This document shows positions 23,045 through 44,399 of a DNA stretch of 64,000 bases, piece by piece (the first letter of the stretch is position 1; the number at the start of each line of letters is the position of its first letter). Under the pieces are notes generated by a model. It had not been told where the DNA came from and did no database searches. It worked only from the letters and a program-made list of their open reading frames with translations. The stretch covers positions 128,529 through 192,528 of the forward strand of contig CAVSWO010000002.1 in NCBI GenBank assembly GCA_963731735.1, given 5' to 3'. This DNA comes from Candidatus Kerfeldbacteria bacterium (lineage in GTDB: Bacteria; Patescibacteriota; Patescibacteriia; SBBC01; CAIJZX01). The translations under genes were made by a program, and so were the position numbers.

Positions 23045-23058
23045 AGGATATCACACTC

Positions 23059-23079: not shown

Positions 23080-23163
23080 GCCCGTTGGGCCGGGGCTTGT
23101 GCTCTCCTGCCACCGGCAGAAGTGCTCGCCCTTCGAATCTATTTTCTTCGCCAAACATCCGTT

Positions 23164-23382: not shown

Positions 23383-23511
23383 GTATTTTCGGGTTGGCGG
23401 GACACATAGGTTAGGTACCACCGCCTGAGGGGTATTGTAAGGCTTTTTCAGCTATTTTTCCAGAGGGCAAAATGAGGCATGTGGGTCGGGGTCTGAAATT
23501 CAAAATGAGAC

Positions 23512-23550
23512 AAATGAGACACGGGAATGGGATATTAGCGTGTCTCATTT
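23512..23550. terminator. Hairpin (12-bp stem aaatgagacacg / cgtgtctcattt, 15-nt loop) flanked by T-rich runs; probable terminator for the minus-strand HIT gene
   Basis: Inverted repeat read directly in the sequence; lies in the intergenic region between the HIT gene stop (23578) and the tRNA block. Confidence 0.5.
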
Positions 23551-23577
23551 TCTAAGGCCTTCTTGGCTAATTTTGGC

Positions 23578-24030
23578 TTATTCCCGGATGTGTTTGGCTA
23601 ATTCAGCTAATTCCTCATTATCAGCTCGTTGGAAGTCGTGTGAAGAAATATAACCCTCGTAATGGTCAAAATATTTGTCGACATTTGACTTCAACGACTT
23701 CCAGTTCTCCATCCTTGTACCATGCATGGGGAAGAGTTTAGCGTGCAGATGGTCAACACCAAAACCTTCAAATATCATTCCGGTTCGACCAACGTCTTCC
23801 AGTTTTACATCCAGTAGCTTGGCAACTTTCTTGCTTGCCATAACGAGATCTGTCATGACTGACTCGGGTACATCAAAGACATAGCTAGGATAATGCTTCT
23901 TTGGAATAACTACGGAGAAACCTTTGGTGTTGGGGAAAATAGACAAGAATGCAAGATGCTTTTCATTTTCCCAGATTTTGTGTGCCGGGCTTTCACCCGT
24001 GATGATTGAGCAGAAGATACATTCAGTCAT
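23578..24030 (-). CDS. HIT (histidine triad) family hydrolase
   Basis: 150 aa; CIFCSI N-terminal motif and histidine triad GVDHLHAKLFP. Confidence 0.75.
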   Translation of the reverse strand: MTECIFCSIITGESPAHKIWENEKHLAFLSIFPNTKGFSVVIPKKHYPSYVFDVPESVMTDLVMASKKVAKLLDVKLEDVGRTGMIFEGFGVDHLHAKLFPMHGTRMENWKSLKSNVDKYFDHYEGYISSHDFQRADNEELAELAKHIRE

Positions 24031-24671
24031 AAAAAGAAATTAGAAGCATGAGTTGATACAAGCTTACTTGGAAGTGCCGATGGATGCGTTTGTAAGTAAT
24101 CACTAATTATGTGAAAGGCAAGAGCATATCCCGACCAACGAGGTATTTTCCGTTGTCGTGATCCGAAAAACCAATCGTGGTGGTTGTATCTTGGCGAGTG
24201 AAGCTCTTTTTTGGCACGGTTATGAAGAGTTTCCAGTTTCTTCCCGCGTACAGCAACGTCCCACATATTCAGCTTTCCCTCAAAGACCTCGGATTCAAAG
24301 TGTGCCGCCAGCCCCTCAGTGACCAGAGCTTCCCCTAAAGTATGGCCGTACCCAGGGTTCGTCCAACGAACAGCGTGATGCAGTTCGTGAGCCAAAGTCC
24401 GTGATAGTTGCGTTTTAATGCCACTTGCGAACTTAGGATGCCTTGGATCTACGGAAATGAACACCGTGTGAGCATTTGGGGTGAAGCCTCCGATACCAAG
24501 TTCGGGTATGGCACCCTCGGGGTTAGAATAAATAACCAAATCTACCTCAACCGGGTGTGGGAGTAATGGGGAAACTCGCGCCAGAGTTTGTTGTATGGAT
24601 AACTTGAGAGCGGTCTTTCTTTGTGTGATTTGGTTTTCTCCCGCTGTCAAAATGTGTGTGGTAACTTTCAT
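24027..24671 (-). CDS. Putative Zn-dependent hydrolase (HExxH; DUF2268-like)
   Basis: 214 aa; HELHHAVRW motif; overlaps the HIT gene by 4 nt. Confidence 0.4.
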   Translation of the reverse strand: MKVTTHILTAGENQITQRKTALKLSIQQTLARVSPLLPHPVEVDLVIYSNPEGAIPELGIGGFTPNAHTVFISVDPRHPKFASGIKTQLSRTLAHELHHAVRWTNPGYGHTLGEALVTEGLAAHFESEVFEGKLNMWDVAVRGKKLETLHNRAKKELHSPRYNHHDWFFGSRQRKIPRWSGYALAFHIISDYLQTHPSALPSKLVSTHASNFFL

Positions 24672-24722
24672 AACTGAAGCATACCACTAAAGTAGGAGTT
24701 GTGCGAAAAAAGACCACTTCAG

Positions 24723-25301
24723 TTACGAAGTGGCTGTACCGTTGGTCGACCAGTGGTCAACCGCCTGATGGATGTGATCGCGAACGTGTTCTGCTCGCCA
24801 AAGGTGGGTCGAGGCGATGTTGGAGACGAGGAAGTCTGCTAGCGGGTAGTAGAATTCCTGTGTCTCGGCCGTCTGCCTGGCCTGCTTGTCTGCCGGACAA
24901 TCACCGAGCGTCCGCAGGTTGTGGAGACGATCAACAAGCTTGGCCATGATGACTGGGTTGCGGCCAGACTCGCGGATGTTCTGGACGTATCGGTCGGTGC
25001 TGACGCTATCACGGTGGGTCAGCAGGTAGGTGTCCTCGACGATGTCATGGAGTAGGAGTGCCAGGTGAAGCTCGAAATCATGGAGCTGGAGCTCGTTGAT
25101 GGCGATCCACGAGCAGGCACGGACGTGGTCGAAGTACCGCCGGCCGCTATCACGGGTCTGCAGTCGGTGACCCTCCTTGGAGAAGGCGTAGGCCGCGCGG
25201 AGCAGACGCATCTGGCGAGCGCTGAAGAACGGTTCGAACCGTTCCATGTACTCTTTCTTCCCGATTTCGGGATACGCAGGCACAACCGTGACGGCCGACA
25301 T
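24723..25301 (-). CDS. Stand-alone RelA/SpoT-type HD-domain protein (small alarmone hydrolase, (p)ppGpp hydrolase-like)
   Basis: 192 aa; LLHDIVEDT, KLVDRLHNLRTL and ETQEFYYPLADFL track the SpoT hydrolase HD motifs (LLHDVIEDT, KLADRTHNMRTL, ETLEIYSPLAHRLG). No synthetase domain. Confidence 0.7.
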   Translation of the reverse strand: MSAVTVVPAYPEIGKKEYMERFEPFFSARQMRLLRAAYAFSKEGHRLQTRDSGRRYFDHVRACSWIAINELQLHDFELHLALLLHDIVEDTYLLTHRDSVSTDRYVQNIRESGRNPVIMAKLVDRLHNLRTLGDCPADKQARQTAETQEFYYPLADFLVSNIASTHLWRAEHVRDHIHQAVDHWSTNGTATS

Positions 25302-25461
25302 GGGACCTCCGGATTGGAAGGGGCTAGCTAGATTGGTTGTCCGGAGGGTAGCACGTTTGGTCTACAAGTCAAGTGCCTTGCTGGCTATACACCTCCAACA
25401 AACAACAGGTTATAAACCTGTGTACACCGAGTATATATATAATTTCATTGATCAGAAAACC

Positions 25462-26991
25462 TCAAATGTTCCGAAGTATTTTCTTACTACCCACTGCGCC
25501 CTTAAAAATTATTGATTGGTCAATCTCAATGTACGATGTACACATATAGCTAATGACGCTAGGATCGTGAGACATAATGATACAAGATAGTCCTTGTTGG
25601 GTATGTATTTGTTTGAGAGTGTTAAGCACCATTTTCTGAGTCTGTACGTCAAGTGCAGATGTTGGTTCATCAAGTATTAATACGTCTGGACTAGCCAATA
25701 AGGCTCGCACTATAGCGATTCGTTGTTGCTGTCCACCACTTAGGCGACTAACCTGTGTATATAAAATTGTCTGCGGCAAATCAACCCTTAGAAGAAAGCT
25801 CTGCAATTCTGCGATAGAACGATTTTTTCTACCTTGAATTGTTCGATCCTCATTTAAGATGGCCAATACAGAGTGGTAGGGGTTCAGAGATTCACTCACC
25901 CCTTGATCAACCAATTCAACGCGTAGATTTGGACTAGTGATAATTTGGCCGCCACTTATCGATAAGTAACCAGCAATGATCTTTGCTAAAGTCGATTTGC
26001 CACCTCCGCTCGGACCCATGACCCCAAAACATTCGCCGTTTTTTATAGAGAAACTAATATCTCTAAGAGCAACAAAATCCTCGTCGAAAGACTTCGTTAA
26101 ACCACGAATATCTAAAACCTTTTTATTGTCGTCCTTTACATCCAAACTCTGTGAATGCAATTCTGACCCAGCTATGATACTCTTCGAAATGACTTTTTTC
26201 AGGTTTATCCCCTTCGAACTTCTTGTAGCATTTTCGATTATCCTACCCTTGTGAAGTACCATGACATTTGTTGCGGCATTTTGGACAAGGTGTATGTCGT
26301 GCGTTACAAAAATGATTGAGAGGTTTCGTTCACGCTTAATCTGGCTCAATATTTGTATAATAACATCGCGACGCTCCTTATCTAGAGCAGAGGTTGGCTC
26401 GTCCAGAAGTAATATCTCTGGATTATTTATGAGCCCGAGTGCGATGTTAATTCGCTGGTTCATGCCACCGCTCAGTTCTGCAGGATATTTCCCCAAAACT
26501 TGCTCTGGGTCGGTAATTTGCACTTCACGAAGTCGATCTACTATTGCCTTCCGAAGACCCCAAGCACTATGTCGACTTCCTTGCTGTTCTTGTAGGGCAA
26601 GTTGAAATTGTTTTTGAATAGAAAGAGTGGGGTTGAGTGACGCGAAAGGATCTTGAAAGACTATCGAAATCTGCTTACCCAGAAACGATTGAATCGAGGA
26701 TTGTTTCGTTCGCTGGTGGGCAAGGTCATAGCTTCTGTAGGACACGGATAGATTGGGGGGTAAAAGTCCACATAGGGCGCGTAGCAAGGTTGATTTCCCG
26801 CCACCAGACATACCAATGATACACAAAAAATCGCCCTGTTGAAGATCTAAACTGATATTCGTTAAAATACTTTTTTTCTTTCCCGCAGTAGAGTGCCAGA
26901 CATTCAAGCCGCGCACACTCAGCACCAATTGTGATGTTGAACTATTCTGAGGCATGATGTTGATCGCTGAGTAGGAAACCGTAAATCCCAA
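25462..26991 (-). CDS. ABC transporter ATP-binding protein with two fused ATPase cassettes (DppD/DppF-like, peptide/nickel type)
   Basis: 509 aa; two Walker A sites (GMSGGGKSTL, GPSGGGKSTL), two signature motifs (LSGGMNQR, LSGGQQQR), two Walker B sites (LLLDEPTSALD, LILDEPTSALD). Confidence 0.8.
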   Translation of the reverse strand: MGFTVSYSAINIMPQNSSTSQLVLSVRGLNVWHSTAGKKKSILTNISLDLQQGDFLCIIGMSGGGKSTLLRALCGLLPPNLSVSYRSYDLAHQRTKQSSIQSFLGKQISIVFQDPFASLNPTLSIQKQFQLALQEQQGSRHSAWGLRKAIVDRLREVQITDPEQVLGKYPAELSGGMNQRINIALGLINNPEILLLDEPTSALDKERRDVIIQILSQIKRERNLSIIFVTHDIHLVQNAATNVMVLHKGRIIENATRSSKGINLKKVISKSIIAGSELHSQSLDVKDDNKKVLDIRGLTKSFDEDFVALRDISFSIKNGECFGVMGPSGGGKSTLAKIIAGYLSISGGQIITSPNLRVELVDQGVSESLNPYHSVLAILNEDRTIQGRKNRSIAELQSFLLRVDLPQTILYTQVSRLSGGQQQRIAIVRALLASPDVLILDEPTSALDVQTQKMVLNTLKQIHTQQGLSCIIMSHDPSVISYMCTSYIEIDQSIIFKGAVGSKKILRNI

Positions 26992-27745
26992 ACGTTAGTG
27001 TTATTAACACTAGAAATAGTGTGGGGAACAACAGCACATTTGGATGATTCCGAAAAACAAGAATTCCATCGCTGATCATCTTTCCTAAATTAGCCTCCGG
27101 CGGTTGGAAACCGATGCCGATAAATCCAAGGAAGGCAGAAAGGAGAACAACAACCGGAACGCGTTGTATGCCAATCATCACCAACGTCTCTTTCATGGAC
27201 GGTAGGAGATGAAACGCTAATATGTGGCGCCATCCAGCTCCCTTGTTTCGTGCGTAGGCTATAAATCCGCGTTGCATTGCCTTACTCGTTTCGTTAGTAA
27301 CGACCCTAGCTACTCCGGTCCAAGAGATAATGATAATGGTAATAACCATGCCAAGATCACTGCCTATTTGCGGTATGTTACTAAAAAGTAAGAGCAGCGC
27401 AATGGCTAGAAGAAAGTCCGGTATACTGTCTGTAATATTCAATATGGCGGTCATGGCACGACGAACTGTGCCGCCGCGGAAACCAGAGTATGCCCCGAAA
27501 AGTGTTCCAATGCCTAGGCTGCATAATGTGGCGATAGAAACAACCAATATGGCTGATGTGGTTGCCGCCAAAGTACGTGCAAATAAATCTCGTCCAAGAT
27601 AGTCCGTACCAAAAAGATATGTTTTGGAGGGCGGAAGATATTTACCAGCTATGATTTCATTTGGGCTATATTTATTTAGTCCGACGCATACTAAAATAAT
27701 AACCACAGGAACTACAATTACTACCCAAGACTCGCAGCGTTTCAT
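26942..27745 (-). CDS. ABC transporter permease (DppC/OppC-like)
   Basis: 267 aa polytopic membrane protein of the binding-protein-dependent permease family, in the same operon as the ATPase. Confidence 0.7.
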   Translation of the reverse strand: MKRCESWVVIVVPVVIILVCVGLNKYSPNEIIAGKYLPPSKTYLFGTDYLGRDLFARTLAATTSAILVVSIATLCSLGIGTLFGAYSGFRGGTVRRAMTAILNITDSIPDFLLAIALLLLFSNIPQIGSDLGMVITIIIISWTGVARVVTNETSKAMQRGFIAYARNKGAGWRHILAFHLLPSMKETLVMIGIQRVPVVVLLSAFLGFIGIGFQPPEANLGKMISDGILVFRNHPNVLLFPTLFLVLITLTFGIYGFLLSDQHHASE

Positions 27746-28701
27746 GGCAGGTCTCCTGTCTTTTGCGAGTGGCTCCGTTTATCGTTGATTTTTACAATGG
27801 CGTTGGCAATAGAATTCAATGCTATCAAGATTATTGAATAAAAAATTGTTACCCCGGCAATTACGGGATAATCTCGATTTGTGACACTGTCAATAAAGTA
27901 CCGGCCTAAGCCAGGAATATTAAAGATTGATTCAATAATAAAACTGCCCGCAAGTATGTTTGCCACGATTGGTGCGGCGTATGTTAAGCTTGCCGTTAAG
28001 CTATTTTTAAACACGTAATAAATCATTACTGCATCAGTAGAAACTCCCCGCGCGCGAGCGGCCAGCACGTAAAGACTTTGACGAGTTTTTCTCATGTCTC
28101 TCGTTAAAAGTTGTGTCAGAATAATCGTCGGCACAATGCTCAGGATAATGATTGGCAGGATATAACCTGCTCTATCGTCGATACCATAAACAGGTAAGAG
28201 CGAGGCTTTCACGCCTATAAAATATTGAAAGAGTACCGCTATGACAAAAACTGGGACACTGAGGATAATGACTCCTAAAACATTAAATATCAAACTAACA
28301 CGATGATGGAGACTGAGATACGCGCTCAATACCAAGCTCATCACCATAGTGAGTAACATCGCGATAAAGCCAATAACCAAGGAAATTGAGGCATGACTAA
28401 AGATAATACTACGAACGGACTGACCCTCATTTACATACGAATATCCAAAATTAAAAGTTGGCAGCCCCTTCAGTGCGGTGAAGTATCTCGTTAGCGGAGA
28501 TGCATCGAGCTGATGCTTCGCAATAATGTTGTGGATGACCTGCTCACTCTTGATGTTCTCAATATCATAGAATTTTCCAGGCACGACCTCAAAAATTATG
28601 AAGGTGGCCGTAAAAACGAGCAGTAGGGATACCGCAAAAGACAAAACACCGCCGAGAGCAATTCTGGCGGTGTTTCTGTATCTACTTCTTGAAGTAGGCA
28701 T
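27742..28701 (-). CDS. ABC transporter permease (DppB/OppB-like)
   Basis: 319 aa polytopic membrane protein; overlaps the downstream permease by 4 nt. Confidence 0.7.
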   Translation of the reverse strand: MPTSRSRYRNTARIALGGVLSFAVSLLLVFTATFIIFEVVPGKFYDIENIKSEQVIHNIIAKHQLDASPLTRYFTALKGLPTFNFGYSYVNEGQSVRSIIFSHASISLVIGFIAMLLTMVMSLVLSAYLSLHHRVSLIFNVLGVIILSVPVFVIAVLFQYFIGVKASLLPVYGIDDRAGYILPIIILSIVPTIILTQLLTRDMRKTRQSLYVLAARARGVSTDAVMIYYVFKNSLTASLTYAAPIVANILAGSFIIESIFNIPGLGRYFIDSVTNRDYPVIAGVTIFYSIILIALNSIANAIVKINDKRSHSQKTGDLP

Positions 28702-30238
28702 TCTGTAGTATCAATGTACCCGTGTTGTCTTGATAGTAGCCCGTCAGACTCGGGTCAGCAATGTATGTATTAGCCAATGAGTAGAGAGGAAACACGGCAT
28801 GATCATTCATTAATAAATCTTCTGCCTGATGTGCAAGTTGGTATTTCTTGGCACCTTCCGGTTCTTTCAAAATACTTTGATACAGGTCATCGTATTGGGT
28901 ATTCTTGTACCCTGGATAGTTGTTCGTGTCGGTTGATACAAACCCATAGAGGTAGCTCGAAATGTCCGGATATTCTGCAGCCCACGAAGCGGCAACCAAA
29001 TCATACTTCCTATCTTTACGATAACTGTTGAAACTTTGCTTTCGTACGCTTGGATGTCAATGTTTATACCGACTTTCTCGAGCTGGTTCTTTATCAACTC
29101 TGCCAGTGCGACGTCCCCCGATGTATTCGTCAAGTACACTAATGTGAGAGGGTGCTTCGTAGAATAACCAGCATCAGACAAGAGTTGTATCGCTCGTTGT
29201 TGGTCAGCGGTTGCAGTCAAGTACTGTCCCTGGTAGCCATCATTACGGAAGTCAGCCCCCTTTGCTGTATTCATGAAACCCGACGGAATAAAACTCAGGA
29301 GGGCTTGACTACCACTGATGGTTTTAGCAACTGCACTTCGGTCAATGGCCAACGTGATTGCCTGTCGAACTCGATCGTCTTTTAGCGGCGCATGATCGAA
29401 GTTCGGAGATAAGAACTTCGTATAGACAAAGTTTGCATAGTGTACGCTACTTACTTGCGACATTTGATCAACGGTAAGTACGTTACTGACATATGCTAAA
29501 TCCTTACTCTGAAAAGCACTCATAATCGAGTTAGGATCAGACAGCAATTTGAAATGTATTTGGGCTAGATGGACAGTGTTGCGGTTCCAGTACTGATCAT
29601 TTCGCGTCAGAACGATTTGTGTATCGTGACCCCAACTTTCAAGTTTATAAGCACCGTTGCTACATACGTCTCCGCTTTCGTTGACCAGGCCTGGCCATTT
29701 GCCTCGATCGTTTTTTTCTGGACTGGGAAATAGGCTTGTAAAGCGGTCATTGATCCGAAAAAGGAATTTGGTGCTGCAATAGTTACTTCCAGCGTTGTAT
29801 CATTTACTACTTTAATCCCCACATCGTTGGTACTGCCCTTACCGCTATTGTATTCTTTAGCACCCTTAATGTAATACAGATATGATGCCCATCCTGAGGC
29901 GGTTGATGGATTAGGAACCGTAACCAAGCATATTTAAAGTCGTTGGCAGTAACTGCGCTACCATCCGACCATCGGGCATTATTTCGAATAGTAAATGTAT
30001 AAACAGACTGCTGGCTATTGGTGGTGAAGCTCGAGGCTGCGGCTGGTTTTAGACTGCCATCAGAACCAATACTCATGAGCCACACAAACATATTGGAAAG
30101 ATATGCTCGAGCATCTATTGTGAGACTGATTGCGGGATCCAAGGAACTCGGCTCCGATCCTAATACTAAGTTGGCTGTGCGCGTGTTATCAATTCTGGGC
30201 TGCGCCAACGCATAAATCAGCAGCGCAACCAAACCCAA
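28682..30238 (-). pseudogene. Family-5 (peptide/nickel) ABC substrate-binding protein, fragmented into at least 4 ORFs by frameshifts
   Basis: ORFs 29807..30238, 29607..29927, 28867..29547 and 28682..28999 are colinear pieces of one SBP (signal/TM MGLVALLIYALA, then NLVLGSEPSSLDP...). They lie in different frames. Confidence 0.55.
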
Positions 30239-30338
30239 GGACGCGACAGATAGTCATAATGTCCACCTGCCTATCTTAAAAGAGCTTTTATCATAAGATT
30301 CGCCGTAGAAAGTGTATGAAAAAATCTTTTCTTGTGGG

Positions 30339-31817
<1,479 letters not shown>

Positions 31818-34439: not shown

Positions 34440-36007
34440 ACTCCGTTGCACATAACGACAACCCCGGATAATCTGAAAAATATGTGAAGCCATAGTCATG
34501 AAACTACCTTGAAGAGTCTGGATTACTTCATGGTGCCATCCGTGGACTGATAACAGCAATCTATGCTTATATCCATGGCAACGAAAACTGGCCCTGCTCT
34601 TTTTAGCTCTTCGCGTTTGGCATAGAGGACTGGGATGGACACAGGGACACGGGCCTGGTTTACATCATCATCATTAATCCATCTGTCCCTGACAAACAGG
34701 GTAAATCATTCATCCACTTAAAACATAAATCGGTCATTGAGGCATATATGTTAGTCAGACGAGTCATCGAGGCAGGACTAGCAAAGGTGCTCAAATGAAT
34801 ACGATGCTGTTGTTCAGCAGTGCTTGGACCTCCATGCTAGCCCCAGCTGTCGCACGAAAGCGCCCTCCCATTGCTGTACCTTGAGCACTTCTATTAGGGA
34901 AACACCTCTCCTTTCCCTGAGGGACCTGTTCACGGTAGTTTTATCTATTTGAGCTGAGGAGGGGTCTCTTATTGCTTCGTTAGCTTCCTGGTTGTGGTAT
35001 GAACTTCGTGCGCCGATGTGAGCTATTCTCCACCAAAATGATGGGTCACCCAAACAGCCAATTTGGACTCCACATGCGTTCCTTGTGGCTACTATTGTTC
35101 TCCCTGCTAAGCAATGCACATATCACCAGCAATGAATCAGAATTGATAGCCTCTATCCAAAAATAAAAAAGGCAATACTTCAAGCTGATAAAAGCTGTGT
35201 GCTGATCTTAGCCATGTTCCACATGCACAGGTCATCAACCATGACGGTGACTCAGCTGCTGCTATCAGTGATTAATGGCGGACAAAAGCGTTGTTCTTAT
35301 GTGAACGCCTTATAGTCGGCCAAGAGCGTCTGGCCTATTCCTAAACCGGACTCCTATAAACTCCCCAAGGCTGTGACTACTTTACTTTACAAAAGAAACC
35401 ACACACACGCCTCTGGGCTGCCTCACAATGACTGCCTGAGGCTCACTGGGCAGTCATTCTCGCCCCCAGTCACTCGACTAGACAGCTCGCTTCCTCCGTG
35501 ATCACTCACTGCTCCGCCAAAATTGCTGACTTTTGGAACCGCTGGCAAGAAGCCGGCACAGGGAAACTCTACCGTGGTGCATCGTATGTAGAGATATTCA
35601 CATATTACGGGCCTCAGGCTCCGAATGGTGGCCTGTATCGCCCGACGGCCGGACAACGGCGGTACGGGCGCAAATCGCCGCTTACTTCAGCGTCAGCATC
35701 AGCACCCATCCGAGCGGTCGCGACAGCATCAGCCCACAACATTCAATTGCCGCCCGGCTGATGGCCGGGTCTCCTCCGACGGCGCCAGCCAGCCCGAGAT
35801 CAGCCTGCCTAACCTCTGGCCACACTGTCACATCATTTGCCTTTTTACAACGGCAGGTTCAAACCAACATCCACCTATCGTCTATACCGATCGGAGACGA
35901 CGGGGTTCTCGACCAGATCGGCGAAGTTGCTATCAATCCGTCCTCCGCCTGACCCGCGCATGGAGCCAGCTGGCGGGGACTCGGAGACGCCTCTCCGGTG
36001 GTGAACA

Positions 36008-36547
36008 ATGGGGTCGAGCCGAGTGGGATGCACATGGTTGGATATGGGCAATGAACCAATTCACTGTGGCCAGCTTGTTCATGAGTACTGGCCAGCTGAT
36101 CAGGTCAAGCAGGATATCGCACACGAACTCTCTCCTTGTGCTAGCTGTTGGCTGGCGCTCGATGCGGAGCAAGTGGTTGGATTCTGCTGGGGATACCCAA
36201 TTACACTTGAAAACTTGGAGCGGAAGCTGGCGACTCCGATCATGCTCCGGTTTCTGTGGAAGTGTGGCTACCCGCCGGGTACCGAGGTGGCTTATCAGGA
36301 TGAGCTCGGTGTTCTCCTTCCCTACCGCTCCCACGGTATCGCGCGCCAATTGGTCACCATGCGTCAGCTCAGTTTTGACGCTCAGCGTCTTACCCTGAAC
36401 ATTGTCCGAACGCGGAAATCACCTCCATCAGTAACGTACCTCTGGTATACGCGCGATGGGTACCGCGAGATCGGATCGTATCCGGATGGACGCGTAGTCC
36501 TCGCCAGAGAAGTTGCTGGGTATCTCATCCCGCAGTCGGAATACTAA
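36008..36547 (+). CDS. GNAT family N-acetyltransferase
   Basis: 179 aa; acetyl-CoA binding motif A-like QDELGVLLPYRSHGIARQLV. Confidence 0.5.
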   Translation: MGSSRVGCTWLDMGNEPIHCGQLVHEYWPADQVKQDIAHELSPCASCWLALDAEQVVGFCWGYPITLENLERKLATPIMLRFLWKCGYPPGTEVAYQDELGVLLPYRSHGIARQLVTMRQLSFDAQRLTLNIVRTRKSPPSVTYLWYTRDGYREIGSYPDGRVVLAREVAGYLIPQSEY

Positions 36548-36626
36548 TCCGACACATCGTCAGCCAAGCCTCACAATATGTGGGGCTTTTTTTCTACTAC
36601 TTCATTTTGCGATGCGATAAATATTG

Positions 36627-37496
36627 CTAAACTCCTTTTTTCGTCTCTGATAAGCTCTCCCAAAAACCAATCAACTTTGGATCGTAATGGTGCTGACTGG
36701 ACATTGGGATGACGAAATCCTTGTCCCACTGCTTGAATTCACCATGGAGCGTTTGTGAGAAGAGTCCCTTATAACTCTTTACCTTCTGTTCAAGATTTGT
36801 ACTGAAGGAATATGCCTGAAAGTGCTTGAGGTATTCTGGATCATGCTGTTCTAAATATTCAATGGCTGCCTTCTCTCCACGCCAAGGGATGTTACGAAAA
36901 GAGAAATACGCTGTGACTAACTCGGTAATGCTGTACAGCAATCGAAGTTCAAGAGTCTGGTGGTAAAGGGTATTATTAGATTTGTAGTACCGGGTATTGG
37001 CAATATAGTTATAATTGACCTTCACCCACAAGTCCTGTTGTTCTTGCTTAGCAAATGTGAATTCTGGGGACTGATGTTCAAGTTTCACGCAAAGCTTCTT
37101 GAGTAAGGCGTCAGGATCGTAAACGATTTTTGCCAAAGTCAGCCACGTTACAAACATGCCATCAAAGTCATTGGCCGTGAAGGTGTTCTTGGTATTCAAT
37201 CGCTTAAGGAAGCTCGTATCAAAAAAGAAGATATCGGCGAAATGATCCTCAATCGTGGTATAGATGGACTTCAACCCAACCGTATTAGTATCAAGAATAA
37301 CTATGAGGTCAATATCGCTCGAGTCCGTTATCGAAGTAGCTGTCGATCCTGTTAGAAAAATTCCTCGTACTCGCGGGGAACGCTCGAGCTTATCAATGAC
37401 TTGAGAAAGCGAAAGGCTAGACACGCGGGCTTCTACTTCAGCAACTGTTTTACCTTCTCCACCACTTCCGCCGGAGAATTCATCGCCTTGACCCAA
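36627..37496 (-). CDS. Nucleotidyltransferase-domain protein (Pol-beta superfamily; KNTase/ANT-like N-terminal fold plus helical C-terminal domain)
   Basis: 289 aa; GIFLTGSTATSITDSSDIDLIVILD matches the GS...D.D nucleotidyltransferase signature. Last gene of the signalling operon. Confidence 0.5.
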   Translation of the reverse strand: MGQGDEFSGGSGGEGKTVAEVEARVSSLSLSQVIDKLERSPRVRGIFLTGSTATSITDSSDIDLIVILDTNTVGLKSIYTTIEDHFADIFFFDTSFLKRLNTKNTFTANDFDGMFVTWLTLAKIVYDPDALLKKLCVKLEHQSPEFTFAKQEQQDLWVKVNYNYIANTRYYKSNNTLYHQTLELRLLYSITELVTAYFSFRNIPWRGEKAAIEYLEQHDPEYLKHFQAYSFSTNLEQKVKSYKGLFSQTLHGEFKQWDKDFVIPMSSQHHYDPKLIGFWESLSETKKGV

Positions 37497-37840
37497 TAAT
37501 CGGTGGCACCAAGTTCTTTGGCGCGTTCCACGTTACCCTGCATTTTTTCATCAAGATTGGTGAGAATAACTACGGGGACATCTTTCGTGGCTGGATTCTT
37601 CTTTAGTTGTTCGAGCACTTCAAACCCCGATTCTTTATCAAGTACGTCCGTAAGCCCGCGATGCTTGGGCATAATGAGATCCAGAAGAATAAGATCTGGA
37701 TGAACCCGCTGAGCGGTTTCCAGACCTTTTTCTTGGGTAGCGGCTGGGAGAAACTCGAATGTTCCTTCAAGTGAAAACTTAAGGGTATAGAGATGGATTA
37801 GCTCTTGTTCGTCATCAATAAATAGTACTTTTTTCTTCAT
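37433..37840 (-). CDS. Single-domain response regulator receiver
   Basis: 135 aa; VLFIDDE, LILLDLIMP, KAMNSPAEVV receiver motifs. Confidence 0.75.
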   Translation of the reverse strand: MKKKVLFIDDEQELIHLYTLKFSLEGTFEFLPAATQEKGLETAQRVHPDLILLDLIMPKHRGLTDVLDKESGFEVLEQLKKNPATKDVPVVILTNLDEKMQGNVERAKELGATDYWVKAMNSPAEVVEKVKQLLK

Positions 37841-37844
37841 AAAG

Positions 37845-38228
37845 TTATTCTTTGGCTAATCGTTCAAGAACCTTATTCACCACTTGCTGTGGTAGGAGTT
37901 CTGCCTTGATAAGGTACTGTTCCGCCCCAAGTCCAAGGCCTTTAGCGGCATTATCTTTTTCACCTACATTGGTGAGCAAAAAAACTGGGATACTAGCCAG
38001 TGACGGATCTTCTTTTAAGCGTTTGAGAACCTCAAAGCCATCGAGATCATCCATACGGATATCGAGCAAGATCAGATTTGGCTTACTCTTCTTGGCTAAG
38101 GACAAACCCTCATAACCACCATAGGCAATCAAAAGGTTCAAGCCAGCCACCTTGAATTTAATGCCATACATCTCACACAAAACGCGCTCGTCTTCGATTA
38201 GGAGTATCTTGGCTTTTTTAGGATCCAT
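37845..38228 (-). CDS. Single-domain response regulator receiver
   Basis: 127 aa; ILLIEDE, LILLDIRMDDLDGF, conserved T/K region LLTNVGEK...YLIKA. Confidence 0.75.
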   Translation of the reverse strand: MDPKKAKILLIEDERVLCEMYGIKFKVAGLNLLIAYGGYEGLSLAKKSKPNLILLDIRMDDLDGFEVLKRLKEDPSLASIPVFLLTNVGEKDNAAKGLGLGAEQYLIKAELLPQQVVNKVLERLAKE

Positions 38229-38230
38229 AA

Positions 38231-39239
38231 TTATTTAGTAGAGTGATTTTGTTGATGAATGGGAAGTGTGATCGTGACCGTGGAACCCTTTCCATCTCCG
38301 TCACTAATGATGTCAATCGCACCGTGGTGCTCGTCAATCACGTTCTTGGCAATAAAGAGTCCGAGACCAGAACCGTTGGTGTGCTGGTAAGTGGATTTTT
38401 CGCCTCGGGAAGACTTCTGGAACAACTTCGAACGGTCAGACTTTGGAATGCCAATACCGGTGTCCTTAACGGTGAGGACGACTGCCTCACCCTTAACCCC
38501 CAGACTGATTGTTGTGCCACCGGTATTTGTATATTTCTCGGCGTTATCGATAATGTTCATTAAGACCTCGTGGAGCATCTTTGGTTCGGCCTCTATCTTT
38601 GGTAGCGGTGGCTTCGGGTGATTAAACTTTAAGTAGAGCTCCTTATGGTCATAGTTCGGTTTGAGGTCACCACAAACACTATCGATCATTTCCTCAAGTT
38701 GTACTTGTTGGAAGTCAAAATGAAGACTCCCGCCCTCAAGCTCCATCGCTTTCAGCAAATCGTTGACGATACTAGAAGCCTATTTGCTGAGTCCAACATG
38801 TGGTGCTGTTCGGTTTTCTTTTCGTCCTTCGATAAGCTATCAAAGTCTCCGTCTGCTTGCATAGCCAATAGTCCACGAACAGCTGTCAATGGCGTGCGGA
38901 GCTGGTGGGAAGCAATAGTAAGGAACTCCGACTTATTTTAACGAGTTCTTGCAAATGTTCATTTTTATCGGAAATGTCCCTTGTTTGCTCATCAACCTTT
39001 GAGCGGAGATTCTTGTTGAAGTCTTGAACTTGCTGATAGAGCAAGCCGTTTTGAATAGCAATTGATGCTTGGTCAGCGATGGAATCGAGGAGTTGTAAAT
39101 CACCGGACGTGTAGGCTTCCTTGGTTACCTTTGATCCTAACACAACAATACCAATAAGATGCTTACCAAACGTTAACGGCAAACAGAGCGCCGCTTCAAT
39201 CCTTTTCATATTTACAACGAGCTTCCCCGACCTCGCCAT
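38231..39239 (-). pseudogene. 3' part of the sensor histidine kinase (end of GAF domain, HisKA, HATPase_c), broken by frameshifts
   Basis: 38886..39239 carries the GAF C-terminal part; HisKA (SHQLRTPL-like) reads in another frame around 38760-38940; 38231..38758 encodes HATPase_c (GTGIGIPKSD..., GSGLGLFIAKNV). All are colinear with the upstream 787-aa ORF. Confidence 0.55.
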
Positions 39240-41559
39240 TTCCTTGTCCCGCGACTTGCATCCCTTCCAGTTCCTGCAACAACACGGAACGTCGATTTGT
39301 TGTAAGATAATTCGTTAAAAAGTTGTTACGAACAAGTGAAATACCGTTTTCCTCATTGAAACCAATGTTTTTGACGATATGGTAATTCGATGTCGTTTGG
39401 TCATACAAGAGGACACCTGCTCGGTCGAGCTTCATAGTGCTCTTAATCGTCTCAACGACTGAGTTAACAATCTGTTGAAGATCAATGGTATGCGTCAGTT
39501 CGCGCCCTAAGTCAGCTAACGTCACTTGCACGTTATACAGACTGGTAAAGAAGAAACGATTGGCTAGTCGTTCGATCCACAATTTGAGTGGATCGAAGAC
39601 GATTAAGCCAAACGTGATAACGGCTAAACTCCATGGGATAGGAGTACTGCCAGAAAAATTGTTTGATCCCCAGTCAACAAGTAATCCAGAAACACCAAGA
39701 ATAATTGCGAATGTTAATAGATAAACTGTCGTTCGTTTAAAAATAATACGAATATCTAGGAGTCGGTATCGCACAATAGTGTATGCGACGGTCATGATAA
39801 AGACGAGCGGAGCGACGTTAGTAAACGTTATTAACGCCGAGGAGTGAAAAACGAGTGGGGCAACGACATTGAAGAGAATAATACACGTGAAGCTCAGGGC
39901 AAAACTTCCGAGAATATATTGAAGCTGTGTTCGCTCGATTCCGAACCTGGTTCGGATCTGATGGACAAACTGCTTAATAATCCCAAACAAGTAAAGAAAA
40001 AAACCGATGAAGAAATAGCCCACCGCCCAGCCCGGATGCGCTACGATATTTCCATTATTTACCTCGACGCTTTTGAACATCCATGGACTGAGTGCCAGTG
40101 CCATACTGGAGACCACGACAAATGCTGATAATACAACAGTCTGTCGCCGAGTAACTAATGATCGATGCGGAAAGTTGCTAAGAAATAAATACCAAGACGG
40201 GGTCAGAACCGAAGCAAAAAACATAGTCCAACGTATCCAAATGACTATGCGGGATGGATCGTGATAGAACGATGTCAGGTAGTTTGAACCGATGGCGCCA
40301 GCAAAACCGATGGAAAAGATGAACAGCAACATATGCAGCGCCGATCGTCGGTTATTCGACAACACAACGCCCGCCAGAATAATGGTGCTCGCGACCGAGA
40401 GGATAGTAACAATGAGACCAAACATATTAGACAGCAAAAAGTTTTTCGAATGGACCGAAACACATGAAGGCAATTGGTCACCAAGGGCTATGCGCTTGAT
40501 GGCGTACGTGACTAGAGAACCACCGAGGAATGAAGCTAGGGCAAGTTGTGGATGGCCAGCAAGATGTGTCCCCACTCGACGAATGGAATCCAGCATGCGC
40601 GGGGAAATATCTTTCACTCCAATCATCTGCGTCGCCAGTCGTGCTATTTCCTGATACTCTAAGGTCGTAGGTACATTTTCCAATTCCTTCTCCGGCACAC
40701 GGCCACCAAACATTGGTGTATGTTGGTCGAGATCATGTCGCTCAATATCAAGTATCGCCCCATCTGCCAAATCCGTCGCCATTAAAACAGCGATCCGGTG
40801 TTGACGAGCAAAAAGACGAAGTTTGATTTTCATTCGGATGTTGTCAAAAGCATCAACCACAATATCTAGTTTCTGGTCACCGAGGAGAAAAGCCTCTAGA
40901 TTCTCTTCGGTAATCGCCTGAGGGAAAAGTAAGGGTGCCGCAAATGGATCAAGTTCCGTTATCTTACGAGCCAGAACTGTGGTTTTTTGTTCCCCCACGT
41001 CTGCCAGCGTCGCGTGCATGCGATTTAAATTGCTCGCCTCAATAATATCCGGATCGGCCATCCGAAGTGACTGCCCGATGCCACTAATCGTAAGTGTCAA
41101 TGCCTGAGCTTGACCGACGCTGAGACCGATAATACCGATGCGTATTTGCTGAAGCTTACGCTGTTCCTCGATCGTTACAAGATTACGGTTTCTCGCGGTA
41201 CGCAGTTGAAAATAGTCATCCGCAGCCGGAACATGGATGAGCTCTCGATTCCATGGATAATAGGCCCATACCCCACACCGTGCTGAATTTTCTTGGTTCC
41301 CACGGTGTGACTGAAGCCAGGATTCATAGGCGATTTTCAAACCTTGGGGATCCGATTTTAACGGTGGATGGCTGATGACGTACAGCTCACGAAGCATCTC
41401 ATCATATCGATCAAGAACAACCACGTCCCGCGCCTCAGCTAAAAAGGCATCCAGTCGATCCACCTCGTCCGGACGACTCATATCATACAAAACTGGGCGA
41501 GCTACATCAGTATCATCTGTGTGACGACGTTGCCACTGCTCAAGGCGTTCTTCAAGCAT
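39196..41559 (-). CDS. Fusion protein: N-terminal E1/ThiF-like adenylyltransferase domain, multi-TM (about 8 helices) sensor region, and start of a GAF domain
   Basis: 787-aa continuous ORF. ThiF/E1 signature ADPDIIEASNLNRM and Rossmann-like IRIGIIGLSVGQ in the first 330 aa, then a long hydrophobic block, then GAF-like sequence continuing into the frameshifted kinase. Start overlaps the upstream gene by 8 nt. Confidence 0.6.
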   Translation of the reverse strand: MLEERLEQWQRRHTDDTDVARPVLYDMSRPDEVDRLDAFLAEARDVVVLDRYDEMLRELYVISHPPLKSDPQGLKIAYESWLQSHRGNQENSARCGVWAYYPWNRELIHVPAADDYFQLRTARNRNLVTIEEQRKLQQIRIGIIGLSVGQAQALTLTISGIGQSLRMADPDIIEASNLNRMHATLADVGEQKTTVLARKITELDPFAAPLLFPQAITEENLEAFLLGDQKLDIVVDAFDNIRMKIKLRLFARQHRIAVLMATDLADGAILDIERHDLDQHTPMFGGRVPEKELENVPTTLEYQEIARLATQMIGVKDISPRMLDSIRRVGTHLAGHPQLALASFLGGSLVTYAIKRIALGDQLPSCVSVHSKNFLLSNMFGLIVTILSVASTIILAGVVLSNNRRSALHMLLFIFSIGFAGAIGSNYLTSFYHDPSRIVIWIRWTMFFASVLTPSWYLFLSNFPHRSLVTRRQTVVLSAFVVVSSMALALSPWMFKSVEVNNGNIVAHPGWAVGYFFIGFFLYLFGIIKQFVHQIRTRFGIERTQLQYILGSFALSFTCIILFNVVAPLVFHSSALITFTNVAPLVFIMTVAYTIVRYRLLDIRIIFKRTTVYLLTFAIILGVSGLLVDWGSNNFSGSTPIPWSLAVITFGLIVFDPLKLWIERLANRFFFTSLYNVQVTLADLGRELTHTIDLQQIVNSVVETIKSTMKLDRAGVLLYDQTTSNYHIVKNIGFNEENGISLVRNNFLTNYLTTNRRSVLLQELEGMQVAGQGNGEVGEARCKYEKD

Positions 41560-43075
41560 GGGGTTTTACGATGATAAACTTTTGCTTATCTGAAGAAAAA
41601 TATTTACGGTCTTGGAATGGACGATTATGGACTTGGACTAGGCCAGGCCTCGTAACCGACTCGGTCAGTTTTCGGAATTCACTGTTCACCGTTTTGAGGT
41701 GGTCGGTAATATACTTCGCTAGATACTGTTCATCAACATCACCATTCTGGTGTTTCGGACCGAGCTCAACGAAAAATTCTAGATATTGATTGCTTTTCTC
41801 ATCCTCGCTTGTCTGCATAGCGAATCGTCCGGTGATTTTCCCCTGGAATTCCGGTGCGAGTAAAATGGATTTAATACTTTCCGGATATACATTGACGGCA
41901 TAGATGGTCGCTGTCAGGTTTGAACGCCCAAAGAGATAGGCAAACGGTAAACTCCATGGAGCCGAACCTATAGCCTTGTTTATCACTTCTTGACTGATAC
42001 CAGCTTTGGCCAAGTGCCCTATGATTTCGGTAATGGTGAGGAGGCCGCCCCGATCTTTGGTATTATATCGAACTAATGGTATACCACCAAGATTCGTCAG
42101 CACCAGTTCGTGGTCAACCGCTTCGATGAACTTTGTCAGAGGATTAAACTGGACGATAGACGGTAACGTATCATGACCGAAGAATTGGGTATGCAACTTC
42201 GGCTGTTTATAACAAGCACGACGCAGGTAAACACTCATTGGCGTCTCAACCCCGACGATGCCGCCCTCTGATGATCCGAGTACAGAGGTAATATCTTTGA
42301 ACTCGTGGTTTAATTGTGCATGTTTGAAAACATAATCTCGCCATGACTCGGTATGGACTTCACCACCAACGAGTACCTTCAGTTTCATTTTTGCAATGTC
42401 GATTCCTTCGGTGATAGCTAGGTCAATGATATCTTTTACGAAGGCTGGATAGCCTATGATGAAAACCTGTTCATAATACGGGGCTACATTCCGTAGGATT
42501 TTTATCGTCTCCCCAAGATCGATTCCCGGCGACATGACTGTCAGTGGGTAACCCTTGGCGGCAATAGTCTTTCCTGACGAAAGCATCATCTCGCCGGCAG
42601 TCCAGACACCCATGCCAAGGTTGTCGAGTAAGAGGGTTGAAACGTGATCAATGGCGAAATTTTTGATATACAACAGCTCTAATATTTTTGCTATGCCCAG
42701 ATCCTGATCAAGAAGTCGGGGCCAGTAGAAAGGTTTTCCTGACGATCCCGAACTTGAAGAGATAATGTTGGTTTGTGACAAATTGCCGTCCAAACACAAC
42801 TGATCCAGTGGGTACTGCATCAGGTATGACTCTTTATCGGTTAGTGGAACCTCTTGAAAAGCTTCGTAGGTAGTAATTTTTGTCGAATCGACACTGTGTT
42901 TTTTGAGAAAATCTTTATAGGCCGGTACGCGTTCCGCGACGATCTGAAAACTCTTTAGCGCAAACTCCTTACCCTTTTCATCCCACATAGCGGGAGGTGC
43001 TTTTTGGAGAGCTACTTCGTCCTTGGTGGGATCGGAAGTATAGTATGTCTGAAATAACTCAAGTGGTGTTGGCAT
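41552..43075 (-). CDS. Adenylate-forming enzyme of the PaaK / coenzyme F390 synthetase / GH3-like family
   Basis: 507 aa; AMP-binding P-loop SSSGSSGKPFYWP and family-typical size and architecture. Translationally coupled to the E1-like/sensor gene. Confidence 0.6.
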   Translation of the reverse strand: MPTPLELFQTYYTSDPTKDEVALQKAPPAMWDEKGKEFALKSFQIVAERVPAYKDFLKKHSVDSTKITTYEAFQEVPLTDKESYLMQYPLDQLCLDGNLSQTNIISSSSGSSGKPFYWPRLLDQDLGIAKILELLYIKNFAIDHVSTLLLDNLGMGVWTAGEMMLSSGKTIAAKGYPLTVMSPGIDLGETIKILRNVAPYYEQVFIIGYPAFVKDIIDLAITEGIDIAKMKLKVLVGGEVHTESWRDYVFKHAQLNHEFKDITSVLGSSEGGIVGVETPMSVYLRRACYKQPKLHTQFFGHDTLPSIVQFNPLTKFIEAVDHELVLTNLGGIPLVRYNTKDRGGLLTITEIIGHLAKAGISQEVINKAIGSAPWSLPFAYLFGRSNLTATIYAVNVYPESIKSILLAPEFQGKITGRFAMQTSEDEKSNQYLEFFVELGPKHQNGDVDEQYLAKYITDHLKTVNSEFRKLTESVTRPGLVQVHNRPFQDRKYFSSDKQKFIIVKPHA

Positions 43076-43603
43076 AAAAAGGGAAAAGATTACCCCGATA
43101 TTAAAGCCCTACGGCAAGCAAATGATAACACAAAATGAGGCTTTCGCGTAATATTACGTCATCAAACCTTGCAAGGGATCTTAAGGGTTTCGCGGTCTTT
43201 TAGAAACCAAACTTATTTGAAGTTACCTACAGTTTACCAACTAGACGCCGTCCCCCATCGCGGTACTGTCTGGACAAGTCACTGAGCAAGAAAAACGAAG
43301 TTGCTGGAAGGCGCAAAATACGCTAGAATAACGCCAGTTTGAGGCCTCGGTAGCAGTTGTTTCCTCAAACGTCCTTTCTCCAACTTCTTTGCCTAACCCA
43401 TACCCTTGTATGGCACGGCATCTAACTCCCATCCCTGGTATTGAGCTCTCCGCTCAGTGACTCAGGGATGGGTCATATCCTGAAAGGGGTATGGGTGGCC
43501 GCAAGGCTGCTAGCTGACGGAGAGCTCTGTGTTATGCAGAGATTCTCGCAAGCTACAAAATCCCATCCCACGACATGCTTTTATCTACCAATATCCTAAG
43601 CAT

Positions 43604-44122
43604 ATGAAAACCGTCTATGGTTCGCTTTTGCATAGAAAAAATATAGTGGCCATCACCTTTATTGGTGTGTCGGCTATGCTTCTCTCGGGCTGTTCCGGAT
43701 CGTCAACAACGAAGACAACTAATACCACAAACACTGGGGTGTCCGCCCCGCAGGTCAGCGCAGAAGATAGTATCAAGGAAGTCCTGAGAAGTTACAGTTC
43801 ACTTTGCGGACAACGGAAGTTCGGTGATGCATACCAATACGTCGCGTCAGCTAGTAACGTTACCCAGAAGAATTTCGTTGACGACCTAACTGGCCGTGGC
43901 CAGCTTGTAAGCGGATTTAAGGACATTTCCTATAACTACGTTCAAATACATGGCGACACCGCCGATGTTTCATACACGGTGACGTGGAGCCTGCTTACCA
44001 ATTCTGTTAGTGGGGGCGCATACAACTACGAGCGGCAGTACCAAATGGTCAAAGAAACTGGGAATTGGAAAATCCTGTGGAAGAGCGACGACGCAGTAAA
44101 TACGAATTCAACCAATCAGTAA
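43604..44122 (+). CDS. Putative lipoprotein
   Basis: ORF 43529..44122; start taken at internal Met MKTVYGSLL...; lipobox LLSGC; Ser/Thr-rich linker. Confidence 0.5.
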   Translation: MKTVYGSLLHRKNIVAITFIGVSAMLLSGCSGSSTTKTTNTTNTGVSAPQVSAEDSIKEVLRSYSSLCGQRKFGDAYQYVASASNVTQKNFVDDLTGRGQLVSGFKDISYNYVQIHGDTADVSYTVTWSLLTNSVSGGAYNYERQYQMVKETGNWKILWKSDDAVNTNSTNQ

Positions 44123-44123
44123 C

Positions 44124-44399
44124 ATGTTCAAACGCGTCCCTGTTCAGAAACTCACTGGTCAAGAAACTTTCCACCAGACGGGAGAGAAGAAGTTCAACGT
44201 GTTGGAGTTCTGGCAGTATGGTTTCTCGAACCTGAACTCAAATGTTTTGCGCGGAGCATTGGCCGAGTTCATTGTTGAGAACGCCCTCAAAGACGTAAAG
44301 GACATCAACATCAGAAACCCGTGGGGCGACTCCGATAAAAGATTGAGTTGGCGGAGAGGGAGAGATTCGAACTCTCGATACGGGTTTAACCCCGTATAA
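44124..44399 (+). other. Short ORF that runs into the tRNA-Ser(GCT) gene; likely a gene remnant at the island/tRNA junction
   Basis: 91-aa ORF whose last about 17 codons overlap the tRNA (44349-44442). The first 70 aa look protein-like (FNVLEFWQYGFSNLNSNVLRGALAEFIVENALKD) but no domain is recognised. Confidence 0.3.

Follow-up and report, generated by a model that had tools for sequence, protein, structure and literature searches.

We have found that a 20,946-bp segment lying between two serine tRNA genes in the genome of a Candidatus Kerfeldbacteria bacterium is probably a horizontally acquired genomic island, devoid of an integrase gene and located at the 3' CCA end of tRNA-Ser(GCT), and that its genes are intact, the lesions in the deposited sequence being consensus errors; the island would also be segregating in the sampled population. 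The DNA that was analysed, referred to here as the window, comprises 64,000 nucleotides of contig CAVSWO010000002.1 (assembly GCA_963731735.1, positions 128,529 to 192,528 of the forward strand), and the island proper occupies positions 23401-44346 of it and carries 20 genes, a gene remnant and a small RNA. Its host has a small genome (~0.82 Mb) and belongs to the Patescibacteria, or candidate phyla radiation (CPR). A search with RecG returned relatives only from the candidate phyla radiation, Chloroflexota and Dormibacterota, the top match being a Candidatus Kerfeldbacteria metagenome-assembled genome (MAG; locus L001) at 57% identity and all remaining relatives showing at most 43%. Megablast of the segment against E. 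coli gave no match, and an enterobacterial or Sodalis-like host was set aside in view of the protein content and the relatives of RecG. Genomic islands at tRNA sites are a common kind of feature; the host of this one is unusual. An original prediction, made from the letters of the window alone, had described the segment as an accessory island that was old, degraded and rich in decayed genes; as set out below, its accessory character is borne out and its decay is not.

An ancestral cluster of tRNA-Arg, tRNA-Ser(GCT) and tRNA-Ser(TGA) would have been split by insertion at the CCA end of tRNA-Ser(GCT). In the window all three genes are on the reverse strand: tRNA-Ser(TGA) at 23164-23253 (ARAGORN; Rfam tRNA score 64.8 bits), 147 nt outside the left edge of the island; tRNA-Ser(GCT) at 44349-44442, whose 3' end adjoins the island; and tRNA-Arg(GCG) at 44476-44552 (both ARAGORN and Rfam). 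The ARAGORN coordinates agree with the predicted position of the segment, between tRNA-Ser(TGA) and the 3' end of the tRNA-Ser(GCT)/tRNA-Arg pair, but the predicted start at 23440 lies about 40 nt too far inside. Island-unique DNA stops at 44346 and the 3' end of tRNA-Ser(GCT) is at 44349, so that the island sits directly 3' of a tRNA gene, as had been proposed, and ends at its CCA terminus. The only candidate for an attachment-site (att) repeat is an 8-bp direct repeat, GTTGGCGG, found by direct reading at 23393-23400 (left copy) and 44347-44354 (right copy), the latter overlapping the last 6 nt (CCGCCA) of tRNA-Ser(GCT); the contig ends of two assemblies coincide with the repeat copies, and neither blastn-short nor a repeat search found any repeat longer than 8 bp joining the island ends.

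Pieces of tRNA are also present just outside the island. An exact 22-nt copy of the 3' end of tRNA-Ser(TGA), from the T-loop to CCA, lies on the reverse strand at 23059-23080, 83 nt downstream of the intact gene (blastn-short, E=3.7e-7), and an exact 18-nt copy of its 5' end, with similarity extending to ~27 nt (acceptor and D arm), lies on the same strand at 23365-23382 (blastn-short, E=6.5e-5, and the repeat search), adjoining the left island edge from outside. Rfam matches for further tRNAs or pseudo-tRNAs near tRNA-Ser(TGA) were at chance level only (E<=10). It is possible that the fragments are old att sites, or that they are decayed duplicate tRNAs, and they are consistent with repeated recombination at the tRNA cluster. 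Still more tRNA half- and end-fragments are seen near the same three tRNAs in L001 (8360-9860), where 60-90 nt of GC-rich DNA lie between some of the T-loop-like halves.

The segment is AT-richer than its surroundings, as predicted, with a GC content of 0.466 against 0.528 in the flanks. The predicted figures of ~40% and 55% were right in direction but not in value, since even the block at 25.45-32.0 kb has a GC content of 0.436 and the flanks lie at 0.53. Composition is also far from uniform when calculated along the sequence: the tetranucleotide correlation with the pooled flanks is 0.86-0.95 throughout the flanks and falls to 0.21-0.48 in all 4-kb windows of 24-44 kb, GC-richer parts included. 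The GC content at third codon positions (GC3) is 0.60 +/- 0.04 in host (flank) genes and 0.39-0.54 in most island genes, which places most of them 3-5 standard deviations (SD) under the host mean. Base composition and codon usage thus both deviate as in genomic islands. Three genes within the island are GC3 outliers, namely those for an HD-domain hydrolase (0.75) and for a DAO-family oxidoreductase and a GNAT acetyltransferase (both ~0.57), and this spread makes the description of the segment as a mosaic a fair one.

Comparison with relatives indicates that the same site is elsewhere occupied by little or nothing. The flanks of the window encode HtpX, a ClpC-type ATPase, ComF, RecG, a large surface protein and genes resembling those of type IV secretion systems (T4SS), and the order in L001 is HtpX, ClpC, ComF, a conserved 165-aa protein, tRNA-Ser(TGA), tRNA-Ser(GCT), tRNA-Arg, RecG and T4SS-like genes; collinear matches in L001 (32-88% amino acid identity) exist for 17 of the 18 flank proteins tested. 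The gap between the two tRNA-Ser genes is 21,095 bp in the window as against 382 bp in L001, and it measures 7-2,795 bp in ten further Patescibacteria loci that carry both genes, the tRNA trio being a neighbour of recG in many Patescibacteria. Of the 21 island proteins searched, none has a match in L001, and no orthologues of them were found in 80 related recG loci. The segment, absent at the same site from L001 and from the ten other relatives, is therefore not conserved in synteny, and the claim that it is accessory holds. Collinear flanks, short gaps and the lack of island orthologues in relatives together support insertion into a recurrently used slot, and comparison of the loci suggests that the tRNA-Ser/tRNA-Ser spacer is a recurrent variable one. 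Where the spacer is not empty in other Patescibacteria it holds small unrelated cargo, with functions read from translations of the open reading frames (ORFs): a sigma factor and putative anti-sigma (L018, 1379-4084), an AbrB/MazF-like toxin-antitoxin pair with a SulP transporter (L029, 3872-6668), a restriction-enzyme-like protein (L036, 8355-9743), a DUF218-like protein (L008, 5003-6074) and a NUDIX hydrolase (L024, 1169-1836).

It is conceivable, though we think it quite unlikely, that the segment is instead ancestral and has been lost in the relatives, an empty site in the sample then being a recent deletion between two 8-bp repeats that occur by chance. There is a single moderately close relative, reduced genomes often undergo deletions at microhomologies, the gene nearest the tRNA is truncated, and the island carries housekeeping-type functions that include a prolyl-tRNA synthetase (ProRS). 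Nevertheless, codon and oligonucleotide usage lie far from those of the host (GC3 mostly 3-5 SD under its mean), eleven relatives across the phylum have their tRNA-Ser genes only 7-2,795 bp apart, no island gene occurs in the neighbourhood across 80 loci, and both endpoints of such a deletion would have to match a compositional boundary as well as the exact end of a tRNA.

Independent assemblies of the same sample bear both on the junctions and on the state of the genes. Exact-protein look-ups for RecG, the ProRS fragment, a 167-aa start variant and a 1006-aa protein had no match, and no literature was found under the accessions of the run and the assembly. Other look-ups of protein clusters and exact proteins placed island proteins on further contigs as well, which was not the case for most of the flank proteins that were tested. 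Two of these contigs are Logan contigs of run ERR11594398 (18,402 bp and 2,533 bp) and a third is contig_108178 (20,848 bp) of the ENA assembly ERZ25039549. Logan contigs are assembled from 31-mers present at least twice (PMC12424806). The ENA contig spans window 23398-44348, thereby covering nothing but the island, and ends at the 8-bp repeats. The Logan island contigs end at 23371 and 44376, exactly 30 nt (k-1) past the last island-specific base on either side, and in a de Bruijn graph such ends arise where each flank can be continued in two ways and the island in one only. The simplest second path out of the flanks would be an empty site in which AGCCACGCCTCCGTATTTTCGGGTTGGCGG is joined to AGAGGGAGAG, with an expected junction sequence of CCGTATTTTCGGGTTGGCGGAGAGGGAGAGATTCGAAC; in the empty site so proposed the tRNA-Ser genes would be 141 bp apart, which is inside the range of the relatives. 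Occupied and empty sites, we infer, probably coexist in the sample. The presence of the island in only part of the population would explain the consensus noise confined to it (see below), the island-only contig and the graph branches at both repeats. We note that the right flank is a tRNA that other organisms may share, and that the left contig end is for this reason the stronger evidence.

These contig ends also speak to whether the 21 kb might come from another organism or replicon and have been wrongly spliced between two tRNA genes during assembly, which we regard as very unlikely. An assembly chimera of this sort would fit with the existence of the island as a separate 20,848-bp contig in another assembly, with the restriction of consensus noise to the island and with a composition sharply unlike that of the flanks, and tRNA genes are conserved sequence of the kind at which graphs tangle. 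Both junctions, however, are present in the independent 31-mer assembly, which reaches 30 nt into the host side at each end, including the left flank, which is not tRNA; with a second context the island contigs would end at the island edge and not 30 nt past it. Moreover, the separate contig ends exactly at the 8-bp repeats, with no continuation into another genome, and long reads are unlikely to be mis-joined twice at 90-nt repeats.

The apparent decay of the island genes disappears when the assemblies are compared. Against Logan contigs the left flank (window 12541-23237) shows 0 differences in 10,697 bp, and the right flank (window 49261-55232) shows 9 substitutions and no gap (5,963 of 5,972 positions identical), which amounts to 0 indels over 16.7 kb at 99.85-100% identity; the 9 substitutions on the right, with none on the left against contigs of the same run, suggest some strain microdiversity on one side of the island. 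The island is likewise identical to the Logan contigs save for one patch (34466-36100) and ~60 mismatches and indels that fall in tight clusters, several of them at T5, A5 or C5 runs. In the patch, which is bordered by exact identity on both sides, there are 277 mismatches and 93 extra bases (~78% identity), with a strand-asymmetric substitution spectrum (T>C 76, C>T 54, A>G 10, G>A 14).

Every frameshift noted in the original prediction coincides with a cluster of differences from Logan. The window's ProRS has three frameshifts (near 30958, 30771 and 30606-30618) and is complete relative to a Patescibacteria homologue but across three frames; the solute-binding protein is split by indel clusters at 29032, 29114, 29661 and 29919; and single-base indels interrupt the sensor kinase at 38776, 38934 and 39228. 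Because a T is missing at 40452, the window's ThiF gene reads through into the kinase as a 787-aa ORF (39196-41559, reverse strand), and the deposited annotation includes this artefactual fusion of ThiF with a seven-transmembrane (7TM) kinase as a protein entry. No gene is broken in the Logan version (486 aa for ProRS, 538 aa for the binding protein, 377 aa for ThiF and up to 751 aa for the kinase), so that the frameshifts in the binding protein, proS and the kinase, real as they are in the letters of the window, vanish in an independent assembly of the same sample, and none of the frameshifts or ORF losses is reproduced there, the Logan contigs being intact at all sites. The 1.5-kb ORF-poor patch proves to be a ~78%-identical copy of clean sequence encoding a deacylase, a regulator and the start of the GNAT gene. 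The ENA contig, for its part, is noisy in other places: it differs by 10-15% at 27-30 kb, a stretch that is almost clean in the window, and by no more than 2-4% in the window's bad patch at 34.4-36.1 kb. Since the three versions agree over much of their length, their lesions differ in place and the cleanest is fully open, the lesions are technical; the frameshifts, the ThiF-kinase fusion and the ORF-poor patch are, as judged from these assemblies, local consensus errors of the deposited assembly. Their source would be a long-read assembly whose consensus was incompletely polished and in which reads covered the island thinly or mapped to it ambiguously. Genes in the flanks are intact, as had been stated of the large core genes, with long ORFs covering 96-97% of the flanks and 84% of the segment.

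We therefore give hardly any credence to the view that this is an old island in decay, in which the frameshifted ProRS, binding protein and kinase are real pseudogenes and the ORF-less 1.5 kb is eroded DNA. It is true that the lesions stand in the letters of the window while the flank genes are intact, and that a nuclease-like remnant at the tRNA junction is reproducible. But an assembly of the same run is identical save at the lesions and encodes full-length genes, next to flanks that match at 99.85-100%, the third assembly carries its lesions elsewhere, and more than 370 differences within 1.6 kb between exact stretches, insertion-dominated and strand-asymmetric, do not form an evolutionary pattern. 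Far from being old and degraded, the island looks recent or dynamic.

No recombinase, transposase, relaxase or phage gene was found among the island proteins with Pfam, NCBIfam, PADLOC or PHROGs (clean versions being used where they differ from the window), in agreement with the prediction that no integrase or transposase would be recognisable, and the suggested search of the ORF-poor patch for integrase remnants, extended to all small gaps, gave nothing (34380-36060; six-frame Pfam, E<=1). The island thus has neither the integrase gene nor the integrase remnant of a classical island. Nor is it a transposon, as no terminal inverted repeats join its ends and the sole transposase-like signal is a weak helix-turn-helix match of a YerC-like protein (18.5 bits with an IS630 model whose cutoff is 100). 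The PHROGs matches were all to generic enzymes, and nothing marks the island as a prophage, an integrative and conjugative element (ICE) or an integrative and mobilizable element (IME). A phage origin was rejected, as no IMG/VR relative of the island's PaaK-like gene was found and PHROGs was uninformative. We can think of two routes by which the island might have entered: recombination at the tRNA 3' end by an integrase that acted in trans or has since been lost, or illegitimate recombination guided by microhomology. Beside the tRNA junction lies a truncated nuclease-like gene, and the tRNA-proximal end has therefore been eroded or was formed by illegitimate recombination; an integrase formerly located there may have been lost.

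That the island is an active integrative element (prophage, ICE or IME) that excises and circulates, with a circle junction that would read GATAAAAGATTGAGTTGGCGGGACACATAGG, is highly improbable, because its position at a tRNA 3' end, its flanking direct repeat, the island-only contig and the inferred empty site, all of which such an element would account for, are set against the lack in the island of any integrase, relaxase, T4SS, capsid or terminase gene (PHROGs and PADLOC giving generic matches only), the lack of a relative in IMG/VR, the lack of the Logan branch at the inner repeat edges that a circular junction would create, and an ENA contig that is cut at the repeats and not at an arbitrary point of a circle.

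Several points nonetheless weigh against our preferred reading of the segment as a horizontally acquired and segregating island. The 8-bp repeat could be microhomology or chance in a region strewn with tRNA-end fragments. The truncation of the tRNA-adjacent gene speaks against the present junction being the original, undamaged end of a mobile element, and no recombinase was found that could account for the insertion. The empty site is deduced from contig ends and not seen as sequence. There is a single reasonably close relative (L001, RecG 57% identity) with which to polarise insertion against loss. Lastly, cells could not tolerate losing the island if its ProRS gene were the sole proS of the genome.

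The left part of the island is read from the reverse strand and begins with a HIT-family hydrolase of 150 aa (23578-24030; Pfam PF01230, E=2.7e-10), the DNA of which is 100% identical in the Logan contig, followed by a DUF2268 predicted Zn protease of 214 aa (24027-24671; Pfam PF10026, E=7e-30) and a RelA/SpoT-type HD-domain hydrolase of 192 aa (24723-25301; Pfam HD_4 and NCBIfam spoT_relA; GC 0.594, GC3 0.75). A peptide importer comes next, made up of a fused double ABC ATPase (25462-26991; two Pfam ABC_tran matches, E=1.7e-55), two ABC permeases of 267 and 319 aa (26942-28701; BPD_transp_1 on the identical Logan products) and a family-5 solute-binding protein, 538 aa in the clean assembly (28682-30294; Pfam SBP_bac_5, E=3e-78, Logan version). 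ProRS, also on the reverse strand and 486 aa in the clean assembly, lies at 30339-31805 (tblastn against P0002, residues 9-486 in three frames; Logan gene call), and the DAO-family FAD oxidoreductase (511 aa) at 32049-33584 (reverse strand; Pfam PF01266, E=7e-55). On the forward strand are an Asp/Glu racemase of 228 aa (33753-34439; Pfam PF01177, E=1.7e-25) and three genes of which the lengths are those of the clean assembly and the matches those of the clean proteins in Pfam and NCBIfam: an AstE/AspA-family deacylase (269 aa; window 34498-35357), a YerC/TrpR-like regulator (104 aa; window 35405-35732) and the GNAT acetyltransferase (222 aa; window 35863-36547).

The right part of the island returns to the reverse strand with a Pol-beta-type nucleotidyltransferase (NTase) of 265 aa (36627-37424; weak Pfam Polbeta/NTP_transf_2 matches), two single-domain response regulators of 135 and 127 aa (37433-38228; Pfam Response_reg), the 7TM-GAF-HisKA-HATPase sensor kinase, which in the clean assembly is one ORF of up to 751 aa (38231-40484; Pfam; ORF in L082), a ThiF/E1-like adenylyltransferase of the Rv1355c family (377 aa; 40427-41559; NCBIfam NF005901, E=7e-87) and a distant PaaK-like adenylate-forming enzyme of 507 aa (41552-43075; NCBIfam PaaK models at E=1e-14 to 1e-12, below cutoff; no Pfam family matched). 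A reading of the NTase and E1-like genes as a defence system like CBASS (cyclic-oligonucleotide-based antiphage signalling system) was rejected, PADLOC giving only generic E1-domain and weak NTase matches. The forward strand then carries a full-length LOOT small RNA (43390-43511; Rfam RF03000; cmscan score 76.5 bits, E=1.2e-12, with a gathering score of 46.4), which has the same sequence in the Logan contig and is placed directly upstream of the gene for an NTF2-like (MecA_N) putative lipoprotein of 172 aa (43604-44122; Pfam PF05223, E=1e-5). The LOOT motif is known from the OD1, OP11 and TM7 lineages; it was not found in L001 or in three contigs that carry an operon with the PaaK-like gene (L087-L089). 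The last gene before the tRNA is the nuclease-like one (44124-44348, forward strand), which holds the N-terminal 71 aa of a PD-(D/E)xK-like family of ~200 aa and is the only reproducible gene remnant in the island. A phmmer search of 1.84 billion representatives gave 260 matches, with residues 1-71 of the query aligned to the N-terminal ends of proteins 199-209 aa long; in all three assemblies the truncation is identical and the gene breaks off just past the GDSD motif, ahead of the EVK motif. The truncated ORF that the original prediction had placed against the tRNA is thus real.

Taken together the cargo reads as a scavenging and signalling package. It groups into the peptide ABC importer, ProRS, an amino-acid set (DAO oxidoreductase, Asp/Glu racemase, AstE/AspA deacylase, GNAT, YerC-like regulator), an operon of PaaK-like, ThiF, sensor-kinase and response-regulator genes, the LOOT RNA with its lipoprotein gene, and the HD, DUF2268 and HIT hydrolases, and such cargo fits the scavenging lifestyle of Patescibacteria. 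The ProRS could be either an extra or a replacement copy. It is 85% identical to an enzyme of a 'Patescibacteria group bacterium' and 76-83% identical to many others of the phylum; the island shares no synteny with the context of the best ProRS homologue (L081), which has a ribosomal protein operon and glycosyltransferases. Two tRNA genes lie within 1.2 kb ahead of proS in L081 (8830-9814). For the PaaK-like protein the nearest named relatives are also Patescibacteria (56-57% identity), the best match overall, at 64%, being unnamed. The order PaaK-like, Rv1355c-family ThiF/E1-like, 7TM-GAF histidine kinase (window 38231-43075, reverse strand) is kept on three low-GC JGI metagenome contigs (L087, L088 and L089), one of them 236 kb long, at 28-59% identity, and is followed by a response regulator in one of them (L089). 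These Patescibacteria relatives and the occurrence of the operon on low-GC contigs suggest that the donor was probably a different member of this radiation with a lower GC content. Outside the sample no near-identical copy of the island was found.

The T4SS-like genes of the right flank (window 50862-55135, reverse strand; L001 13163-18560) include a VirB4/TraG-type P-loop ATPase, 87.8% identical to that of L001, and a T4SS_pilin-domain protein; having host composition and being conserved in L001, they are core to the lineage and lie outside the island. Farther right, an 85-aa ORF at 63161-63418 (reverse strand; GC 0.426, GC3 0.37) deviates from the neighbouring host-type genes. On the left, L001 has two additional genes between the conserved 165-aa gene and tRNA-Ser(TGA) (6846-8307, reverse strand) that resemble, from their translations alone, a P-loop kinase and a D-2-hydroxyacid dehydrogenase; the window is without them, so that the left side of the cluster is variable too.

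Classical tRNA-associated islands, such as the pathogenicity and metabolic islands found at tRNA 3' ends in enterobacteria, are integrase-mediated. The island described here resembles them in its atypical composition, its exact insertion at a tRNA 3' end, a direct repeat that may restore the terminus of the tRNA, its absence from relatives and its accessory cargo, but it differs in having no integrase or remnant of one, a repeat of 8 bp only and a truncated tRNA-proximal gene, and in that the host is a ~0.82-Mb CPR genome and the cargo consists of CPR-type housekeeping and scavenging genes. A further parallel is offered by the hypervariable islands that Coleman et al. 2006 reportedly described at tRNA genes of Prochlorococcus, which are said to have tRNA-fragment repeats and often to lack integrases. 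Shared with those islands are a small streamlined genome, a variable tRNA slot, nearby tRNA-end fragments, presence or absence at the level of strains, and nutrient-acquisition cargo; the phylum is a different one, and variability was deduced here from assembly-graph ends and not from compared isolate genomes.

The apparent pseudogenes have a parallel of their own. Long-read metagenome assemblies are prone to indel-driven frameshift 'pseudogenes' in regions of low coverage or ambiguous mapping, and the lesions described here are like them in vanishing in an independent assembly, in being clustered and partly at homopolymers, and in including one stretch of ~78% identity that resembles raw reads. 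Unlike the usual case, the noise is limited to one 21-kb segment of an otherwise clean contig, and this makes it informative about the island's lower or ambiguous coverage; noise so confined is a signal in itself, in that it would mark the segment as polymorphic in the population. A cluster of pseudogenes limited to one segment of a MAG can thus be a consensus artefact, and uncritical use of the annotation would lead to the wrong conclusion that the organism has no ProRS, peptide-binding protein or sensor kinase, and to the report of a ThiF-kinase fusion that does not exist.

It is tempting to extend our reading of this one island to the site as a whole, and to suppose that the Ser-Ser spacer next to recG is a phylum-wide, integrase-independent cargo slot of Patescibacteria at which DNA of other CPR cells is captured at the CCA end by way of an 8-bp identity. 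We consider this generalization unlikely. Were it true, such capture would leave the tRNA-end fragments seen in the window genome and in its Kerfeldbacteria relative, the 21-kb island, aminoacyl-tRNA synthetase included, would be a currently segregating example, and the slot would represent an undescribed route of gene exchange in organisms thought to be very static and reduced. Our findings document a sizeable accessory island in a ~0.82-Mb CPR genome, one that is integrase-less, probably strain-variable and situated in a spacer that holds variable small cargo across members of the phylum. Their main value lies in a warning about artefactual pseudogenes and in a pointer to a variable slot in the genomes of Patescibacteria.

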